Shown here: one piece after another, positions 8,440 to 62,943 of the stretch | How positions within the stretch are numbered: position 1 is the first letter of the stretch | How the letters are laid out: each line of letters starts with the position of its first letter | Origin: an uncultured Bacilli bacterium | GTDB taxonomy: Bacteria; Bacillota_I; Bacilli_A; RF39; UBA660 | Assembly: GCA_947626275.1 (NCBI GenBank) | Contig: CANQRL010000004.1 | Location: forward strand, 10,370 to 74,369 | Reading direction: 5' to 3' | Length of the DNA: 64,000 nucleotides | The notes under the pieces: model-generated | The model's database searches: none | What the model was told of the DNA's origin: nothing | The model's input: the letters and a program-made list of their open reading frames with translations, nothing else | Translations under genes and position numbers: made by a program

Positions 8440-8491
8440 ACTATCACCAATTCCATTATACCATATTCTCTTTTAGAGAAAAGAAAAAGAG

Positions 8492-8776
8492 TTAACTTTC
8501 GTTAACTCTAACACTTCCTAAATCATAGAGATTCGTATACCCCATACTGAGTAGAAGTTGGCAAGCAAGCTTACTTCTACGTCCCGTTGAACAATAAAGA
8601 ATCATCTTTGTATTTTTAGGAAGGTTCTTCGTCTTTTCCAAGATGCTTTGATAAGGAATATTAATGGCCTCTTTTAAATGTCCCATTTGATATTCTAAAG
8701 AATCTCTTACATCAATTAGAATCGCACCTGGTGTTAGATGCTCATTCAATATTCCCATCGTTATTTGATGAATCAT
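8492..8776 (-). CDS. rhodanese-domain sulfurtransferase (single domain)
   Basis: 94 aa; active-site loop YCSTGRRS (Cys-X4-Arg rhodanese signature); AGGAG RBS. Confidence 0.75.
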   Translation of the reverse strand: MIHQITMGILNEHLTPGAILIDVRDSLEYQMGHLKEAINIPYQSILEKTKNLPKNTKMILYCSTGRRSKLACQLLLSMGYTNLYDLGSVRVNES

Positions 8777-8782
8777 AATCTC

Positions 8783-10111
8783 CTATCTAATGGAATTGTT
8801 TTTTAAGGCATTCGCCATCTTTTTCCATAATCCGCTAGAAGAGTAGTTCAAAATACCCACTTTATAAACTCTAAGTCCATACTTGATGAGTAAAAAATCC
8901 GTAATGATCATAATGATAATCGCTATGACTAATTCGAAAATACCGATTTGTCCTAATACCAACAAAGAAGGCGCTAAAATAGCGGAAATGAATGGTATAA
9001 AGGAGAAGGCTTTAATGACTAGGGAACCCTTAAACATTCCTGCCATAATTCCCAAATAGTAACCAAGTAAGGAAATGATAATAATTGGGACTTGAACTTG
9101 TTGATAATCTTCTGTTGTTGTCGTCATAGATGCCAACACTCCTGCTAATAAAGCATATGCGACAAACGTAAGAAGGATAAGGACAATTGCTAGAGGAAGA
9201 ATGATGACTAATTTATCCCCTACTGAACTTTCTAGGAAAGAAGAAACCATTGGTCCAATTTCATCGAAAAAGGCCGCTCCAGCTCCCCCACCTTTGCTAG
9301 CAAGATTGCGAATGAAAATAGCGAGTCCTCCGTACCCACAGGCAAGAACGGCTTGACCAATCACAAATAGATTTCCAGCAATGACTTTCGCAAAGAAATG
9401 AGTTTTGGGAGAAACGTTGGAAATGATAATCTCCATCGCTTTGGTTGTCTTTTCGTCATTGACTTCTGCCCCTATCATTTGGACTAAAAATAAAGAGAGA
9501 ATAAAGATTGGTAAAATGAAGATAGGGAAAACGGTTGTCATAATCATTTCCGTACCTTCCGCCTCCGTTTTATTATTTTCATCCACTAAAGAAGTCGTAA
9601 TGACAACATCAGACATAATCTTACTATAATCTTCAGCAGTAAGACCTAAATCATCCATTACCAACACTACTTTTACACTATTTAAGGCACTGCTGATTAA
9701 CGAATAATCATATGTATCAACCGTTTCTTGTGAAATGAGTTCAACCTCTATCGCATTTTCTAAAGATTCTTGAATATGGACGATAATGCCGCCCTCTTCA
9801 CCAACTAATTCCTTTTTATCTTCTACTTTCGCAATCGGCTCTATCTCATAGAGATGGGAATCTTCCCCATAGAGATTTTTCTCATTCAAGAGAAGAGCTT
9901 CTTTAAAAACATCGTAAGAGACATTCGTATCATCAACAACATAGATATTGACGGCCTCGTCAAAATCACCACCAAAAGATTTAATAATGATATCTAAGTT
10001 AAAAATTCCAACAATTAAAAGGCAGAGAATAATTTGCGCAGCCACAAACCATTTGGTCTTTACTTTTCTTGCTAAACTAACGCCTATTAAAAAATTTAAC
10101 TTACTTCTCAT
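8783..10111 (-). CDS. ABC-2 family transporter permease (NatB/YhaP-like)
   Basis: start moved to ATG at 10109-10111 (AGGTGA RBS); 6 predicted TM helices with large extracytoplasmic loop after TM1; overlaps upstream ATPase gene by 11 nt. Confidence 0.6.
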   Translation of the reverse strand: MRSKLNFLIGVSLARKVKTKWFVAAQIILCLLIVGIFNLDIIIKSFGGDFDEAVNIYVVDDTNVSYDVFKEALLLNEKNLYGEDSHLYEIEPIAKVEDKKELVGEEGGIIVHIQESLENAIEVELISQETVDTYDYSLISSALNSVKVVLVMDDLGLTAEDYSKIMSDVVITTSLVDENNKTEAEGTEMIMTTVFPIFILPIFILSLFLVQMIGAEVNDEKTTKAMEIIISNVSPKTHFFAKVIAGNLFVIGQAVLACGYGGLAIFIRNLASKGGGAGAAFFDEIGPMVSSFLESSVGDKLVIILPLAIVLILLTFVAYALLAGVLASMTTTTEDYQQVQVPIIIISLLGYYLGIMAGMFKGSLVIKAFSFIPFISAILAPSLLVLGQIGIFELVIAIIIMIITDFLLIKYGLRVYKVGILNYSSSGLWKKMANALKNNSIR

Positions 10112-30162: not shown

Positions 30163-32352
30163 TTAATAGATAACGCCACCCCACTCAACCGCTGTAAATC
30201 CTTTTCTTTGGAACGGTTTTAATCTCTGAGGTTTTATCGCTTGATAAGAATCAACCTTCTTGATATGAATAGCCATTCGAAGAAGAGAATCTGGTTGTGG
30301 ATTGATTTTGATTGGACTATAGGCATTTCTTTCATCCGTCAACTCGAAGTAGACAAGACTTTGTCCATTTTTCTCCAAAATTGGTAACCAATACATAATA
30401 AATTCGTTTTGTTCACGACTATTTAGACCAATTATAGAAAGCTTTTCTTCCAAGAAGTCGATGGCATTTTCAGCCGTTACATAGAAACCTTCTTCAAAAT
30501 CGACATAATGATTTCCTTGCTCTTCCCAATAAAGGGCATAATAAGATTTTTGTTTTTGATCGAATAACGTACCATTAGGGATTGCTAAAACACTCCATTG
30601 ATTTTGATACTTTGGATACGTAGTTGTTAATCGTTCCGGATACTGGAATGTCACATTAACGACTGTTGGTAACGTTGGATAAAGATAGAGAACTGGTTTA
30701 GCATATCCACCAATATAAGTTGGGATTTTACCAGATTCTTTCGTAGATGGAATGTAGTAGTATTCATATCCTAAATCGTATTCTTTTAATTCTTCTAAAG
30801 ACATATCTGAGTTTTCTCTTTTTACTTCGTCTGGAGTTACTTGATCATCTTGAATGACAAGGTAAACACCATTTTTACCACGACCATCATACCAACCAGA
30901 CAACATCGTATGAAGAGTATATTGATTGGTATCCCAATTTGAAATAAAGGTATGAATGACATTACCAAGATAATCTACCAATTGTAATTGATTGTTATCT
31001 ACGACAACGACATAATCATCGATAATCATTAAAACATCATCATAGGTCTTACTCGTATATTGAAGAGTTTGACTAGTATTATAGTACTTAAATTGATTTT
31101 GAACATGCGTAATAAAAGCCTTCTTATTGACAAAGAAACCATCTACTTCTTCGCCATTAAACATCGCCTTTCCTTGTTGATTATAAATTTTAACCGTATC
31201 TTTTTCTGTCGATACCACTACATAGAGTTTTCCGTTTCCATCTGTCTCATAAGAAGCAATCTTTCCAGGAACAGAAAAGGCTAATTTTCCGGTTTTTACA
31301 TCAAAGACATTTGACTTGTTCTTTGTTAAGAAAGTCGCATATCCTAAGGATAACGCCTGATAAACGTTGTTATACATCTCATCCCCAAAATATTCTCCTT
31401 CAATATTAGAGATTCGTTTTTTTGTGGCTAAACTGTAAAGATAATTCGTATTTTTCTCTGCCACATAAATACCATATAACGTAGAATCAGAAGAAATTGT
31501 CTCATACCATTCATAAGAAGCAGGTCCAAAAACAGAAGCATTGTTTTGATAATCATAAATAGAAATTTTTTCATTTTCTTCGATAATGGCGTATTGAGAA
31601 AAGGCATACCAACCCGTACACTCTTCCCCTTCACATTCGATTTTTCCCACTTCTGTATTCTTTCCATCTGGATCTTTTTCAAACTGATAGCTTTCTCCAT
31701 ATTGATTTTTTACTTTATAAACCGTCAGTGTTTTTCCCGTAACTTTCTTCTCTTCTTCTTTTTCACCATAGGATCTTTTTTCAGAAGAGCCATCAACGGA
31801 ACAGTTGCTCAAATAAACTTTCCCCGTTTGATATACAGCAGCTTCTTCACAGGTAACCGTATGGTCCTCCAATTTAATATACGGAACTAATTCCTGATAA
31901 GAAGGAACGGCTACGGCTTGAGTGACATAACCACTAGCTAATGTTTCTAACTTTTTAACATATGCCTGAAAAATTTCTTCCTCACTTAGTTCTGTAGTCT
32001 CACTATTAGAATCCTCCTCATGAGTATCCCTGTCTTCTTTTTTATCCTTAGAGAAGAATAAAAAGAAAACGATTACAGCCATTATTAAAACGAGGACAAC
32101 GGCTACTCCTAGAACTATAATCAAACCTTTTTTCTTTGGAGGAGTTAACTCTTGCTCAGGCTCTTTCTCCTCTTTAGGAGGAACTTGTTCTAATTGATCT
32201 TCCTTCTCCATATTTTCCATTAATTCTGCTAAAGAAGCTTCTTCTTTCGAATAATCATCAGAAATTGGCGTCTCCTCTTTCGAAGATACTGGTACAAATT
32301 CCTTTGTCTTTTCTAAATCCGTTTCTTTTTTTTCAACCTTTTCTTCTTCCAT
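30163..32352 (-). CDS. single-pass membrane protein, large extracytoplasmic domain, unknown function
   Basis: 729 aa; acidic N-terminal about 75 aa, TM LIIVLGVAVVLVLIMAVIVFFLFF, rest Tyr/Asn-rich beta-like. Confidence 0.45.
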   Translation of the reverse strand: MEEEKVEKKETDLEKTKEFVPVSSKEETPISDDYSKEEASLAELMENMEKEDQLEQVPPKEEKEPEQELTPPKKKGLIIVLGVAVVLVLIMAVIVFFLFFSKDKKEDRDTHEEDSNSETTELSEEEIFQAYVKKLETLASGYVTQAVAVPSYQELVPYIKLEDHTVTCEEAAVYQTGKVYLSNCSVDGSSEKRSYGEKEEEKKVTGKTLTVYKVKNQYGESYQFEKDPDGKNTEVGKIECEGEECTGWYAFSQYAIIEENEKISIYDYQNNASVFGPASYEWYETISSDSTLYGIYVAEKNTNYLYSLATKKRISNIEGEYFGDEMYNNVYQALSLGYATFLTKNKSNVFDVKTGKLAFSVPGKIASYETDGNGKLYVVVSTEKDTVKIYNQQGKAMFNGEEVDGFFVNKKAFITHVQNQFKYYNTSQTLQYTSKTYDDVLMIIDDYVVVVDNNQLQLVDYLGNVIHTFISNWDTNQYTLHTMLSGWYDGRGKNGVYLVIQDDQVTPDEVKRENSDMSLEELKEYDLGYEYYYIPSTKESGKIPTYIGGYAKPVLYLYPTLPTVVNVTFQYPERLTTTYPKYQNQWSVLAIPNGTLFDQKQKSYYALYWEEQGNHYVDFEEGFYVTAENAIDFLEEKLSIIGLNSREQNEFIMYWLPILEKNGQSLVYFELTDERNAYSPIKINPQPDSLLRMAIHIKKVDSYQAIKPQRLKPFQRKGFTAVEWGGVIY

Positions 32353-34340: not shown

Positions 34341-34380
34341 AAATTATATGAGAAATACTTGAACCTAAAAAAGGAAGGAG

Positions 34381-35208
34381 CTACATTCTCCTTCCTCCAC
34401 CACCGTGACTAGTACCACTATGGCTGCTTCTCGTAGAACTTCCTCCTACTCTTCCACTGCCACCACTACTAGAGGAACTGCTTCCAATATAGACAGAAGA
34501 AGTATTCGTATGCAAAAAGCGATCTTCTTTCCGCGTATAGTTCACAGAACCTTTTTCTAGATAAAGGGAAGCACTCGTAGCTTGCTTTACCATTTTATTT
34601 TTAGCCACTAAAATGCCTACGATAACACTAGAGACAATAATCGAAATCAACCCAAAAGGGAACCATGGAAATTTTCGATTATAGGCTAAATCACCGTTCT
34701 TGGTTAAATGGGTATCTTTATTACTAGGAGCGACACCTTTCGATGCATAAAAGGAAGAGCTTTCAATGAAGGCATGAAACATTTGATAGTAACCTTCCTC
34801 TTTTACTTCGGCAATATCATCCAAAATAGAATCAATACGATTATCATCATAAACTCGAATGGCCTCTCCTGTTGTTAACATATAAACATCATTATATCCT
34901 TGCGTTCGATCGATGATAAACAAGACCCCATCTTTATATTGATTTTTACCAAAACCATTCTCATCATAGAAATCTGCTGCATAATCATATGGGTCACTGT
35001 AAGGATTTTCACTAGTTGTTAGAAGGACCATATCCATGTCATAGGCATCTATATATTTTTGAACTTCTGATTTTAAGGTTGCTTCTTCCCCATCGGTTAA
35101 TAAATCAGCATAATCGTATACTTTTAAGGAAGTATCTAAGGCATTGGTGAGTGGGATGGCTAAGAAGAAAAGGAAAATCGCAAAAAAGACGTAAATATTT
35201 CTTTTCAT
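34381..35208 (-). CDS. TPM-domain (YgcG/TLP18.3-like) membrane protein with Gly/Ser-rich C-terminal tail
   Basis: signal/anchor IYVFFAIFLFFLAIPLTNA, TPM core YDYADLLTDGEEATL...GVLFIIDRTQGYNDVYMLTTGEAIR, TM ISIIVSSVIVGILVA, tail SSSSSSGGSGRVGGSSTRSSHSGTSHGGGGRRM; ATG overlaps upstream stop (ATGA). Confidence 0.65.
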   Translation of the reverse strand: MKRNIYVFFAIFLFFLAIPLTNALDTSLKVYDYADLLTDGEEATLKSEVQKYIDAYDMDMVLLTTSENPYSDPYDYAADFYDENGFGKNQYKDGVLFIIDRTQGYNDVYMLTTGEAIRVYDDNRIDSILDDIAEVKEEGYYQMFHAFIESSSFYASKGVAPSNKDTHLTKNGDLAYNRKFPWFPFGLISIIVSSVIVGILVAKNKMVKQATSASLYLEKGSVNYTRKEDRFLHTNTSSVYIGSSSSSSGGSGRVGGSSTRSSHSGTSHGGGGRRM

Positions 35209-36275
35209 AACAACCCTCCAATGAGCCAAATAACCGTAAGAATTCCAAAGAGAAGAAGGGTAATGCCAATCCACCAAATAGCGACCTTTTTCTTATCAAT
35301 CGGAATATCTCCTATTAGTTTACCCGTTTGTCCATTCATGGCAAACATATAGATTTTTCCTTGATACTGAATGTTTAACATCCATACAGGAAGTAAAACA
35401 TACTCATTTTTTAAAAGTTCAAGATTGTGATCTGCTTTTAAAACAGAAACGGCATCATACCCATGGATACTTTCCTGTAACATACTAGTAGCTGTATTCT
35501 TGGCTCTAACTTCTGCTCCTTTTCGTGCAGCATCACTATCAACATCGTATTTCTCTGCTAGAAAGCCAGAGAGATAAGCATGCGTAAATGTCTGCAAACC
35601 TGCATAATCAAAAGGTTCAATAGAATTCATCATATCATCATTAAACCGCGTAGAGCCATCTACAGGAATTTTATGAAAAGTCATATTTCCTTCACGATAA
35701 GCTCGGTAAGTATCCGTCTTCGTATAACGATAATTTCCGGAAGTCCAAGAAGAAATTCTCTTCGCATCTGCTTCAAGTGCTCCTGATACGCCAAAATCAT
35801 ACAACCAAAAAGGAATATAAACACCTTTCATATCCTCAATATTTTGTTTGCTACTAAACAATTTTGGCATGAAAGGTCTTCCCTTTCCAATCTTTTTAAA
35901 AGCCTCTATCGCATCTTCCTTCGTTTTTTGGAAAGGAATCACATAAGCGGGATTGAATTTTCCTACTAATTTATTTTTCAAAATTGCCGTACTTCGACAA
36001 TACACACAAAAAGTAGCGGATGTATTTTCATCAGCAACGATTTGAGCTCCACAGTTTGGACAGGAATAAACATCCATTCCCTCCGCATCTTTCTCTAGTT
36101 TATCTGCTTCTGTTTCCTCATTTAAAACATGCCCTTTCTTTGCTTCTTGGGCATCTATCTCTTCTCTTGTAAATTTACTTTGACAATATTCACAAACCCA
36201 ATTCTGACCATGAGGGTTAAATTTTAAAACCGCATCACAATTGGGACATTTATGATCTAACGTTCCACCTGCCAT
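35205..36275 (-). CDS. double zinc-ribbon protein with C-terminal TM anchor
   Basis: two CPNC...C..C ribbons (CPNCDAV..CEYC; CPNCGAQ..CVYC) then about 230-aa domain and TM AIWWIGITLLLFGILTVIWLIGGLL; translationally coupled to TPM gene. Confidence 0.55.
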   Translation of the reverse strand: MAGGTLDHKCPNCDAVLKFNPHGQNWVCEYCQSKFTREEIDAQEAKKGHVLNEETEADKLEKDAEGMDVYSCPNCGAQIVADENTSATFCVYCRSTAILKNKLVGKFNPAYVIPFQKTKEDAIEAFKKIGKGRPFMPKLFSSKQNIEDMKGVYIPFWLYDFGVSGALEADAKRISSWTSGNYRYTKTDTYRAYREGNMTFHKIPVDGSTRFNDDMMNSIEPFDYAGLQTFTHAYLSGFLAEKYDVDSDAARKGAEVRAKNTATSMLQESIHGYDAVSVLKADHNLELLKNEYVLLPVWMLNIQYQGKIYMFAMNGQTGKLIGDIPIDKKKVAIWWIGITLLLFGILTVIWLIGGLL

Positions 36276-36380: not shown

Positions 36381-37295
36381 ATGATTGACTTACATACCCA
36401 TACCATTCACTCAGATGGTAGTTATACAACAGAAGAATTATTAAAAGAAGCAAGTTTGCGAGGATTATCTTTGTTATCCATTACGGATCACAATACAATT
36501 CAAGCTCATTTTGACCTTCATAAAAAAGCAATACGGGATCTTTTTCCGAATCCTATCCTTTCTGGAATTGAGATTACTACTACTTATTTAGGAGAAACGA
36601 TTGAAATATTGGGATATGGCTTTTCCGTTGAAAAAATGCAACCACTCCTAGCAAAACATGTTCTAACTTTCTCGGAAAAGCAACAAAAAGAGTTTGAACT
36701 CATCAAAACGCAATACCGAAAAATTGGTGTTCACTTCGATGAAGCAAAGATTTCCTTTGACCCAAATCACGAGTCTTCACGGGTTTCCTTTGTTCAAGAA
36801 ATCAAACGATATCCAGAAAATTTTCGCTTTTTCCTCCACCAGGAAACGATCACTTCCAATAGCGGATTTACAAGAATGGAAGTCTACAATCCCAAAAGTC
36901 CTCTTTACGTAGATGAATCCTCCCTCTTTCCTTCTTTGGAAGAGGCAATTTCGATGATTCATAAGGCAGGAGGCCTTGCCTTTTTAGCGCATCCCTTTGC
37001 CTATTCCCCTAATATTCCACAAGCCTTAGAAACGATATTAGACCACTACGAGTTAGATGGGCTGGAATGTTTCTATACCACTTTTACTCAAGAACAAAGC
37101 GATTATCTAGTGAATTTAGCGAAGAAAAGAGGTCTATTCATGTGTGGGGGAAGCGACTTTCATGGTTCCAGAAAAATCAATCATCAACTTGGTACAGGAA
37201 ACGGACATTTACAAGTAAAGGAAGAAATCGTCCTTCCTTGGGTTTCAAACTATGTAGAAGAATTAAAACAGAAGGTGAAGAAATATGAGTCCTAA
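36381..37295 (+). CDS. PHP-domain metal-dependent phosphoesterase
   Basis: MIDLHTHTIHSDGSYTTEELLKEA...SITDHNT PHP motifs I/II; later HPFAY and DFHG His motifs. Confidence 0.7.
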   Translation: MIDLHTHTIHSDGSYTTEELLKEASLRGLSLLSITDHNTIQAHFDLHKKAIRDLFPNPILSGIEITTTYLGETIEILGYGFSVEKMQPLLAKHVLTFSEKQQKEFELIKTQYRKIGVHFDEAKISFDPNHESSRVSFVQEIKRYPENFRFFLHQETITSNSGFTRMEVYNPKSPLYVDESSLFPSLEEAISMIHKAGGLAFLAHPFAYSPNIPQALETILDHYELDGLECFYTTFTQEQSDYLVNLAKKRGLFMCGGSDFHGSRKINHQLGTGNGHLQVKEEIVLPWVSNYVEELKQKVKKYES

Positions 37296-37797
37296 TGAAA
37301 TGTTAGAAAAAATGGCAACCATTCAATATGGGTTTGTCAATCGGGAAAAAAAAGTTTTTCTAAACGATGAAGATATGATAGAAAATCATTATTGTCTAGA
37401 GACCCCAGAAGAGCTCCTAGAATCGAAAGTAGGCGTCTGCTGGGATCAAGTGGAATTAGAAAGGGATTGGTTTACCAAAGCCAAGATTCCTTTTCAAACA
37501 TTTTGCTTTATCGCCTACCATGATTCTTCCTGTCCTACCCATACCTTTTTAGTATATCAAGAGAAAAATCACTACTTTTGGTTTGAACATTCCTGGGCTA
37601 TTTTTGCAGGGATTCATGAATACCCTTCTTTAACGGCTTTGTTAAAAGATATAAAAAAACGGTTTTTAGCGACAGAAGTCACAGCGAAAGGAATTGAGGC
37701 TGAGGTTATTTTATATCAGTATTCAAAGCCACCTATTCATGCCTCTGTTTCCAATTTTTACGAACACGTAGAAAAAGGGAAAAAAATTTTCTTATAA
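37285..37797 (+). CDS. hypothetical protein (conserved Cys/His, possible papain/transglutaminase-like fold)
   Basis: 170 aa overlapping PHP gene by 11 nt; GVCWDQVELE and HTFLVY/EHSW candidate Cys-His pair; speculative. Confidence 0.35.
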   Translation: MSPNEMLEKMATIQYGFVNREKKVFLNDEDMIENHYCLETPEELLESKVGVCWDQVELERDWFTKAKIPFQTFCFIAYHDSSCPTHTFLVYQEKNHYFWFEHSWAIFAGIHEYPSLTALLKDIKKRFLATEVTAKGIEAEVILYQYSKPPIHASVSNFYEHVEKGKKIFL

Positions 37798-37825: not shown

Positions 37826-38926
37826 TTATTTTTGCTCTTTTAAAGACTCTACTTCTTTAATCAACTGTTGTTCTAAAACTTTAATCAATTGCTCATTATT
37901 GACTTCTTTTGCTTTATCCAAAGCCTTTTTAATTAATTGGATACGGCTTAAATCTACCTTTTTAGTAGCGGTTTCTTCCTTCTTACGAGGGACCTTCTTC
38001 TCTGTTGCTTTCGCATCTACTTTCGTCGTTCCCTTTGGTCTTCCTACTGGTCTTTTCGCAGATACTGTCTCTTTTTCGATTGGAATTTCTTCCATGGTTA
38101 AATCTCTATCTTCTAGAACAGGGGAAGTATCCATAACACTCTCAACGGTTGGTTCTTCTGTCTTCTCAAGATTTTGAAGTTTTTGATACTGCTCCTCACT
38201 AACCGCTAAAGCATTGCTGGTATCTTTCCATCCAATATTGCTTGGATAAGTTTCTTGCGCCAACGCTTCTGCCTTTGTCAAAGGAGAGAATTCCTCTTTC
38301 TTCTCTTCTTTTTCTTCTAAAGAAGGCATACTTGGCATAGGAAAATCAAAGTCAAAATTAAATTCGTTCTTCATCTCCAATGGAGATTCTTCTTTTTCTA
38401 CTTGAACATCAACCTTTGGTTCTTCTTTCGTTTCTGGAACCTCTTCTTTTGGTGTTTCCTCCTCATCGTCAATAATCTCTTCAAACAAATCAAAACCTTT
38501 TGGTTCTAAGACTGGTTCTTCTTTGACATATTCTGGAGGGTTTTTCAAAATAGAAAATGGTAAAGAAACCTCTTGTATTTTCCTTACAAACTCCTCTTGC
38601 GCAGCTAACTTTCTTCTTTCCTCACCATCTAAGTATTTCGTAGGAATGACAAACATATTAGAAGCAGCAATTTCTTTTATTTCTTTTTCTAACTCTACCC
38701 GAATTACTTTATCAGCTTCATCAACCGTTTTTTCGAGCGTTTCAATCGCTTTCATAAGGGCTTGTTCTTGTTCTTCTTGTAATGGACTTTTTTCCATAGA
38801 ATCATACTTAGCATTCAACACACTGTAATCATCTAAATAACCATTTGCTTTTGAGCAATCTAAAATGGCCTTTAATGCTTTTACAATCTCGTCATACGTT
38901 ACCATTGGATTACTATAGGTATTCAT
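37826..38926 (-). CDS. acidic coiled-coil protein with C-terminal AT-hook (KRPVGRPKGT)
   Basis: 366 aa, highly acidic middle, GRP-core AT-hook and Lys-rich C-terminus; 3-nt gap after upstream DUF1292 gene. Confidence 0.5.
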   Translation of the reverse strand: MNTYSNPMVTYDEIVKALKAILDCSKANGYLDDYSVLNAKYDSMEKSPLQEEQEQALMKAIETLEKTVDEADKVIRVELEKEIKEIAASNMFVIPTKYLDGEERRKLAAQEEFVRKIQEVSLPFSILKNPPEYVKEEPVLEPKGFDLFEEIIDDEEETPKEEVPETKEEPKVDVQVEKEESPLEMKNEFNFDFDFPMPSMPSLEEKEEKKEEFSPLTKAEALAQETYPSNIGWKDTSNALAVSEEQYQKLQNLEKTEEPTVESVMDTSPVLEDRDLTMEEIPIEKETVSAKRPVGRPKGTTKVDAKATEKKVPRKKEETATKKVDLSRIQLIKKALDKAKEVNNEQLIKVLEQQLIKEVESLKEQK

Positions 38927-61689: not shown

Positions 61690-62943
61690 CTAATATTTTC
61701 TGGTTCTACTAGTGAAAGATTTTCCTAAAGCAGGAGCATTGACTACATTTCTTGGATTAAAGGTACGAGAACTATATCCACTCCATGATAAATAGTCAAT
61801 CATATAGTGACCAGTTGCCATCTGTAAATGGACATGTCCTCCTGTTGAACAGTGATCCCATGTCTCAATACTTGGAACACCTCCACTTTTACCAATAACA
61901 GTATCGGAAGTGACGACATCCCCTACTTTTACTTTAATAGAAGCAAGGTGCATATAACCGGAGGTATACTTCTTTCCATTAACCGTATGAGCAATGTAGA
62001 CTTGGTTTCCTCCACAACTTAATTTGTTGTAAATAGCTACTACTCTACCAGCCGCTACCGAATAGACATTCGTATTGTGGGGAACAGCAAAGTCAATTCC
62101 TGCATGCCCCTCTGTTCTTTTTACACCATTTAACCAATAAGTTCTCATTCCATAGTTACTAGAAACACGTCCAGAGATAACTGGTCTAAAGAATGCCGTG
62201 TCTGGTGGAAGCTGATCAGGATGTTTTGCTAAACAAGCCTGATAATCTTCTGTTTCATCACATTTAAATTCTTTATATGTTTTTTCATAATTTTCTAAGT
62301 TTTTACGAATCGTTTTTAGCTCTGTTTCAATATCAACAGCGCCTTCTACCGTTTTACTTAAATCTACTCTTAGACTCGCTAAAGTCTTCTCTAATTCCTT
62401 CGTCTTGTTGTTTAACTCGACGACCTTATTGGATAATTGTTCTTTTTTCTCTTCGTTTTCTAAAATTAAATTTTGATATTCTTCAATAAGAGAATCATTA
62501 TAATCACTTAATTGCTCAGCGATTGCCATTCGATAGATAAAATCGGTAAAATCAGTTGCCGTAAAGACATATTCTAGATAGGCATCTTCTCCTGTTGCGG
62601 ATAGTTGATAGTAAGCTATAATATCCTTGATTTCCTCATTTTTAGCAGCAATATCCTTATTCGTTTGTTCAATTTCTGCCGTTAAATCCGCAATATCTTT
62701 TTCGATTCCCATCTTTTCTTTCGTAAGACGATTAATTTCGGAATTGGCTTTATCAATTTCGGCTTGAGTAGCCTGTTGTTCCTTCTTATTCTCCTCATAT
62801 TTCTTTTCCATATCTGCGAGTTCTTGACGCAAATCCTTTAACGATTTTGCTTCAATAGACGGAGTAAAATCAGGGAGAACAACTTGGCTTCCCATTAAAA
62901 CAACAATGAGTAATAGATAACTAAATTTCTTTAACAAACGCAT
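61690..62943 (-). CDS. secreted coiled-coil + M23 peptidase (EnvC-like peptidoglycan hydrolase/activator)
   Basis: signal peptide, about 200-aa coiled coil, C-terminal M23 with HAGIDF (HxxxD) and GGHVHLQ (HxH). Confidence 0.75.
   Translation of the reverse strand: MRLLKKFSYLLLIVVLMGSQVVLPDFTPSIEAKSLKDLRQELADMEKKYEENKKEQQATQAEIDKANSEINRLTKEKMGIEKDIADLTAEIEQTNKDIAAKNEEIKDIIAYYQLSATGEDAYLEYVFTATDFTDFIYRMAIAEQLSDYNDSLIEEYQNLILENEEKKEQLSNKVVELNNKTKELEKTLASLRVDLSKTVEGAVDIETELKTIRKNLENYEKTYKEFKCDETEDYQACLAKHPDQLPPDTAFFRPVISGRVSSNYGMRTYWLNGVKRTEGHAGIDFAVPHNTNVYSVAAGRVVAIYNKLSCGGNQVYIAHTVNGKKYTSGYMHLASIKVKVGDVVTSDTVIGKSGGVPSIETWDHCSTGGHVHLQMATGHYMIDYLSWSGYSSRTFNPRNVVNAPALGKSFTSRTRKY

Follow-up and report, generated by a model that had tools for sequence, protein, structure and literature searches.

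A gene pair on the minus strand of a 64,000-nucleotide stretch of DNA from an uncultured Bacilli bacterium (GenBank assembly GCA_947626275.1, contig CANQRL010000004.1, positions 10,370 to 74,369; hereafter the window) encodes a zinc-ribbon protein, G, and a TPM-domain protein, H, which align with YdjG and YdjH of Bacillus. These two proteins were renamed SamG and SamH in a 2026 preprint (bioRxiv 10.64898/2026.02.06.704340). The locus is a fairly distant member of this already known SamGH module, and its stand-alone arrangement is a common one. We consider it likely that the pair is a SamG/SamH homologue operon whose products form a core complex spanning the membrane.

Homology and architecture of the pair

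The Bacillus locus was retrieved through the ydjG primer sequence printed in PMC8581546, and four loci of the B. subtilis group were found, of which one (L002, B. stercoris) carries pspA, ydjG, ydjH, and ydjI. BLASTP aligned window G with Bacillus stercoris YdjG at 34% identity across 349 of 356 amino acids (E=1e-74); the tblastn comparison with Bacillus YdjG gave E=2e-70. Window H and Bacillus YdjH were 26% identical over 262 amino acids, including the TPM domain, the transmembrane (TM) segment, and the tail (BLASTP, E=1e-18). Because the full-length alignments to both proteins are clear, the pair is identified, on sequence grounds, as homologues of YdjG and YdjH. The Bacillus ydjG and ydjH genes overlap too, as TGATG, and stand in the same order as in the window, G then H.

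The published architecture gives YdjG as two zinc ribbons, a YpeB-like domain, and a TM segment, and YdjH as a TPM domain with a segment of low complexity after it (PMC11237479). Window G is like B. subtilis SamG in its two zinc ribbons, core domain, and C-terminal TM segment, and window H is like SamH in its N-terminal hydrophobic segment, TPM domain, TM segment, and low-complexity tail. The original prediction, made from the DNA letters of the window, had taken the pair for a different, uncharacterised two-component membrane module. That view is rejected, because the zinc-ribbon protein belongs to a family already described, and two-hybrid, localisation, and deletion data on the Bacillus pair have been published (PMC8581546; bioRxiv 10.64898/2026.02.06.704340). 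The anatomy it had described was borne out: G has two zinc ribbons, a central domain without a Pfam or NCBIfam family, and a C-terminal TM segment, and the TPM partner with its Gly/Ser tail and the ATGA overlap between the genes were recovered by Pfam, sequence, and composition. The features of the locus are as follows.

35205-36275, minus strand: samG/ydjG-like gene (G), with a 356-amino-acid product comprising two zinc ribbons, a beta-rich core, and a tail anchor (open reading frame (ORF) list, BLASTP)
36183-36248, minus strand: zinc ribbon 1 of G, C10, C13, C28, and C31 (invariant cysteines; PDB profile search)
35997-36062, minus strand: zinc ribbon 2 of G, C72, C75, C90, and C93 (invariant cysteines; sub-threshold Pfam match; PDB profile)
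35301-35981, minus strand: central core domain of G, approximately residues 99-325, predicted to hold two helices and four long beta-strands; its C-terminal end is the conserved juxtamembrane motif FAMNGQTGKxxGxxP
35208-35294, minus strand: C-terminal TM anchor of G (AlphaFold2 (AF2) helix 328-355; hydropathy peak 338-356)
35205-35208, minus strand: ATGA overlap of the G stop and H start codons (read from the sequence)
34381-35208, minus strand: samH/ydjH-like gene (H), 275-amino-acid TPM-domain protein, probably bitopic (Pfam, BLASTP)
35140-35196, minus strand: N-terminal hydrophobic segment of H, residues 5-23, signal peptide or signal anchor (hydropathy)
34762-35121, minus strand: TPM domain of H, residues 30-149, probably extracytoplasmic (Pfam; topology from fusion proteins)
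34606-34662, minus strand: second TM segment of H, residues 183-201 (hydropathy)
34384-34605, minus strand: putative cytoplasmic tail of H, a conserved juxtamembrane stretch followed by a Ser/Gly-rich low-complexity end
34370-34398, minus strand: terminator-like hairpin and T-run, overlapping the H stop codon
36299-36307, minus strand: candidate extended -10 element TGaTATAAT, 24 nucleotides upstream of the G start codon, with a poor -35 element

G and H constitute a two-gene operon. The TGA stop of G (35205-35207) overlaps the ATG of H (35206-35208), forming ATGA, and a Shine-Dalgarno sequence, GGAGGG, is located at 35214-35219, inside the 3' end of G. The ORF listing begins H at an upstream TTG (35277); the start was placed at ATG 35208, a codon that GGAGGG precedes and that overlaps the G stop. 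The extended -10 element upstream of G is a candidate recognized by reading the sequence and was unlisted by the consensus promoter scan. An Rfam scan found no Rfam element in the window.

The ribbons of G each follow the pattern CPNC-x14-CxxC. All eight of their cysteines were invariant in alignments of 87-88 relatives that share 34-54% identity with window G, Bacillus YdjG included, and the NGQTGK juxtamembrane motif was conserved in the alignments as well. The single hydrophobic segment detected by hydropathy is the extreme C-terminus (residues 338-356), and G is probably tail-anchored, with the zinc ribbons and the core in the cytoplasm. Pfam and NCBIfam gave only sub-threshold zinc-ribbon matches, among them Zn_Ribbon_TF of Pfam against residues 70-93 in ribbon 2 (E=5e-6, under the gathering score), and assigned the core domain to no family. 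When the sequence profile of G was compared with the PDB, ribbon 1 resembled TFIIB and L37ae-type ribbons and RpoP matched residues 65-99; nothing matched the core domain.

An AF2 model of G, built from 87 diverse sequences with no Bacillus row, reached a predicted local distance difference test score (pLDDT) of 91.4 and a predicted template modelling score of 0.85. It featured two small ribbons, a disordered acidic linker at approximately residues 48-66, the core, and the C-terminal TM helix. The modelled core consists of helices 119-131 and 247-268 and strands 150-179, 182-206, 275-304, and 307-314, three of the four strands being 25-30 residues long with pLDDT values of 97-99. A Foldseek comparison of the core with solved structures returned nothing close (best E 0.07); the matches, insignificant at E 0.07 or weaker, were beta-hairpins of pore-forming toxins. 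The core appears to resemble PepSY/YpeB domains weakly. Structural scores against PepSY/YpeB/YpmB-like domains were marginal, a sequence-level match was lacking, and the modelled strands, at 25-30 residues, are unusually long. The family of G is large, with 6,679 clusters at 50% identity for E<=1e-3, including 1,560 for E<=1e-30, and more than 6,700 clusters at 90% identity among the candidates scored.

H matched Pfam PF04536 (TPM; family name TPM_phosphatase) over residues 30-149 with E=1.2e-19. Hydropathy placed hydrophobic segments at residues 5-23, where TNA/LD is a possible cleavage site, and at residues 183-201. The last 60 residues contain 16 Ser and 12 Gly, and two residues of the juxtamembrane stretch, Y216 and D229, were conserved in 90% or more of 53 H sequences. 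H is probably bitopic, with the TPM domain outside and the juxtamembrane stretch and Ser/Gly tail in the cytoplasm, a topology that fits the natural fusion proteins described below, in which the TM segment of G replaces the N-terminal hydrophobic segment of H. YgcG-type TPM proteins encoded in pairs with LemA have a broadly similar build of ectodomain, TM segment, and Gly-rich tail, and the original prediction had taken pairing with LemA to be usual for TPM proteins. In the window, however, the partner of the TPM protein is the YdjG-family protein G and not LemA; Pfam gave no LemA match for G, the gene adjoining H.

Conservation of the G-H pairing and of its partners

A scan of metagenome contigs with a 13-sequence G alignment yielded 80 loci at 37-54% identity, whose ORFs were classed by locally built hidden Markov models (HMMs). 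Collapsed at 80% identity or more, the loci represent 50 lineages, 47 of which are informative for pairing. H lies directly after G in 71 of the 76 loci having downstream sequence and is fused to it in two more, so that the two are neighbours or fused in 73/76 loci; counted by lineage, adjacency or fusion was found in 46 of 47. Seven of the ten unusually long family members that were scanned are natural fusions in which a TPM domain follows the G part (P0126, P0138, P0153, P0164, P0168, P0172, and P0181). The order is G-TM-TPM-TM-tail in six of these; the remaining one, P0138, has one TM segment and ends at the TPM domain. This conservation of the neighbourhood in 46/47 lineages, together with the natural fusions, supports the earlier idea that the pair is a functional membrane module.

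Two further G::H fusions were noted in the metagenome loci, at 6971-9457 in L062 and at 5081-6421 in L085. At 4883-9214 in L010, another G-family ORF (8483-9214), cut short by the end of the contig, is located two genes downstream of G-H after a 535-amino-acid ORF and may be a local duplication of G.

The exception to the pairing is formed by loci L078, L079, and L083, where a short H-like protein with a TM segment and tail but no TPM domain is encoded upstream of G, and another protein with a TM segment and zinc ribbon downstream. In L078 (5621-10342), as in L079 and L083, the order begins with a canonical band-7 protein (HflC-like), the 101-amino-acid H-like protein, and G. Downstream of G follow the 239-amino-acid TM protein, for which Pfam gave no match and whose zinc ribbon is C-terminal, and then a 486-amino-acid SamI-like protein with several C-terminal zinc ribbons.

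In 50 of 74 loci, G is immediately preceded by a gene related to ydjI, whose product combines Band_7_1 (PF13421) with C-terminal zinc ribbons (Pfam). Counted over the 50 lineages, this SamI-like gene adjoined G in 25 and lay nearby in 4; another 12 lineages lacked it although their flanks were complete, and the other 9 could not be judged. Among the 41 lineages that could be judged, the SPFH gene is thus absent in 12, and it is present in about two thirds. The G and H of these widespread metagenome I-G-H operons belong to the families found in the window, with 37-47% identity between their G and window G and the same tight G-H coupling; the SPFH gene lies directly upstream of G, whereas it is missing from the window and from the closest relatives of window G (L005-L016, L020, L021, and L089-L092; 48-100% identity). 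PspA was detected in Bacillus loci only; permissive settings, too, brought up none in the 80 metagenome loci, with a model from three close Bacillus sequences that could miss divergent PspA. Besides the SamI-like genes, no other neighbour family was conserved across lineages; the large ORFs located after H at some loci encode housekeeping proteins with no relation to the pair (FtsK, U32 peptidase, and Lon). G-H, and not PspA or SamI, is the conserved core of the system.

The window differs from the pspA-ydjGHI (pspA-samGHI) operon of B. subtilis in having neither pspA upstream, nor ydjI/samI downstream, nor a sigma-W-type promoter. Within the 64-kb window, tblastn found no PspA or YdjI-like protein, and HMM searches found no PspA, YdjI-like, or canonical band-7 protein. 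No sigma-W-type site (TGAAAC-N15-17-CGTA) lies upstream of G. The sole match to this pattern in the window, TGAAAC-N16-CGTA at 62304-62329 on the minus strand, may be due to chance; 22 of 100 shuffled sequences had at least one such match.

Genomic context of the pair

In the window, G-H is flanked by a divergent PHP gene and a convergent tmcAL, and sits among housekeeping genes (tmcAL, yceD-rpmF, and DUF1292), whereas the Bacillus pair belongs to a stress operon. Relatives at 67-100% identity show the order YutD, DUF1292, an acidic protein of 246-366 amino acids, G, H, tmcAL (convergent), yceD, and rpmF.

The PHP gene (36381-37295, plus strand) had been described as a strongly promoted operon lying divergently next to the pair. 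The divergent adjacency and a promoter-like site, TTGAGC-18-TATAAT with an upstream TG, were both found. The PHP operon is not a component of the system; relatives at 67-68% identity lack PHP at this site. Only the window species and one metagenome-assembled genome (78% identity) have PHP and the 170-amino-acid gene downstream of it in the interval from the acidic-protein gene to G. The PHP operon is a local insertion outside the G-H module.

Several neighbouring genes were recorded in addition. At 36381-37797 (plus strand), the PHP phosphoesterase is weakly similar to RNase RNM and to 3',5'-nucleoside bisphosphate phosphatase, far below cut-offs (NCBIfam), and the overlapping 170-amino-acid gene has a faint DUF553/transglutaminase-like match; judged by the synteny of L008 and L091, the two are inserted between a 366-amino-acid gene and G. 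The latter gene (37826-38926, minus strand) encodes an acidic low-complexity protein with no Pfam match. Its homologues of 246-272 amino acids lie on the same strand directly upstream of G in L008 (7105-7923) and L091 (7206-7946), and may be co-transcribed with G-H in these genomes. Downstream of yceD-rpmF, a gene at 30163-32352 (minus strand) encodes a 729-amino-acid protein with an acidic N-terminus, one TM segment, and a large domain without a Pfam family. Counterparts in the same position are found in L005 (732 amino acids, homologue confirmed) and L008 (720 amino acids, matched by position and size). An anti-phage defence role or a phage origin of the pair was rejected, since PADLOC and PHROGs gave ribbon-level matches only (PDC-S64 of PADLOC against G residues 9-96, E=5e-5; PHROGs of unknown function, E 2.5e-4 or weaker).

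Proposed function and competing explanations

In B. subtilis, YdjG and YdjH interact in the bacterial two-hybrid assay and YdjH interacts with itself; YdjH also binds YdjI and PspA (PMC8581546). Deletion of ydjG or ydjH abolishes the membrane foci of YdjI and PspA and, under alkaline shock, leads to defects in cell shape and peptidoglycan localisation, which deletion of pspA or ydjI does not (PMC8581546). SamGH has been proposed to be a membrane stress sensor restrained by SamI, and when SamI is lost, transcription changes globally in a SamH-dependent way (bioRxiv 10.64898/2026.02.06.704340).

We considered that the window pair should function along similar lines. Translational coupling would yield G and H together, and the two would form one heteromeric membrane-spanning complex, as suggested by the homology with B. 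subtilis and supported by the natural fusions. In B. subtilis the complex anchors the SPFH protein SamI and, through SamI, PspA, and is proposed to tie envelope-stress sensing to cell-wall synthesis. The window pair would then be the core GH sensor and scaffold unit, free of an operon-encoded SPFH or PspA partner. Through its TPM ectodomain it would monitor the condition of the wall or of the membrane's outer face, and the zinc ribbons and core of G would provide a cytoplasmic docking or output surface.

Several points weigh against this interpretation. What is known of function derives entirely from a single organism, and its proteins share only 26-34% identity with the window pair in our alignments. 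The Bacillus partners and readouts, namely PspA, SamI, and sigma-W control, are missing from the window, and SamI or PspA could be encoded elsewhere in the genome. The topology is a prediction from hydropathy and from the fusion proteins.

If neither a SamI "brake" nor a PspA effector existed anywhere in the genome, G-H would act alone in this lineage, as an ancestral, self-sufficient core with its own output to which SamI and PspA were added later. We regard this stand-alone reading as possible, though rather doubtful. One way in which it could work is that the ribbons and the long-stranded beta domain of G would recruit cell-wall or membrane-biogenesis factors.

It is unlikely that the pair is instead an extracytoplasmic enzyme with its regulator, with the TPM domain as a phosphatase or nucleotidase for a substrate on the cell surface and G as no more than its tether or regulator. 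The Pfam family name TPM_phosphatase speaks for such an enzyme, as do the phosphatase and ATPase/ADPase activities reported for some TPM domains (PMC11237479, its reference 90); in PMC11237479, however, the phosphatase idea is one of two competing hypotheses. The B. subtilis phenotypes, with loss of YdjI and PspA foci, are those of scaffolding or signalling (PMC8581546). Furthermore, L078, L079, and L083 keep G and I together with an H-like protein that has no TPM domain, which means that some versions of the system can do without this domain.

Even less probable is a role of G as a transcription or nucleic-acid-binding factor tethered to the membrane, with the TPM protein controlling its release or activity much as in an anti-sigma or membrane-bound regulator. 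The ribbons of G do resemble those of TFIIB, RpoP, and the L37ae type, DNA-binding proteins are known to contain ribbons of the YdjG type (PMC9239133), and the SamH-dependent transcriptional changes upon SamI loss would be in line with such a role (bioRxiv 10.64898/2026.02.06.704340). However, neither a helix-turn-helix nor another DNA-binding domain was found in G, and neither a cleavage site nor a protease partner was conserved in the neighbourhood. Ribbons of the C4 type are frequent as protein-protein modules as well, and the SamI-type partners likewise have ribbons at their C-terminus.

That G and H are chance neighbours with functionally unrelated products, a general possibility for any two adjacent genes, has next to no likelihood and is refuted by the neighbourhood and fusion data (adjacency or fusion in 46/47 lineages, natural fusion proteins), to which the stop/start overlap in the window and in Bacillus and the published two-hybrid interaction (PMC8581546) can be added.

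For a SamG/SamH homologue operon, the discovery value is small, the module being already named and under genetic study in B. subtilis. The core of G is predicted with confidence and lacks a relative among solved structures, so that determining its structure would be a sensible aim. The value of the locus is comparative: the G-H core is invariant, the SPFH partner is present in only about two thirds of the lineages that could be judged, and PspA is unlinked in all 80 metagenome loci sampled. Published work on the system has centred on PspA and SamI, and stand-alone pairs such as the one in the window could therefore be useful minimal systems for studying SamGH sensing and output.

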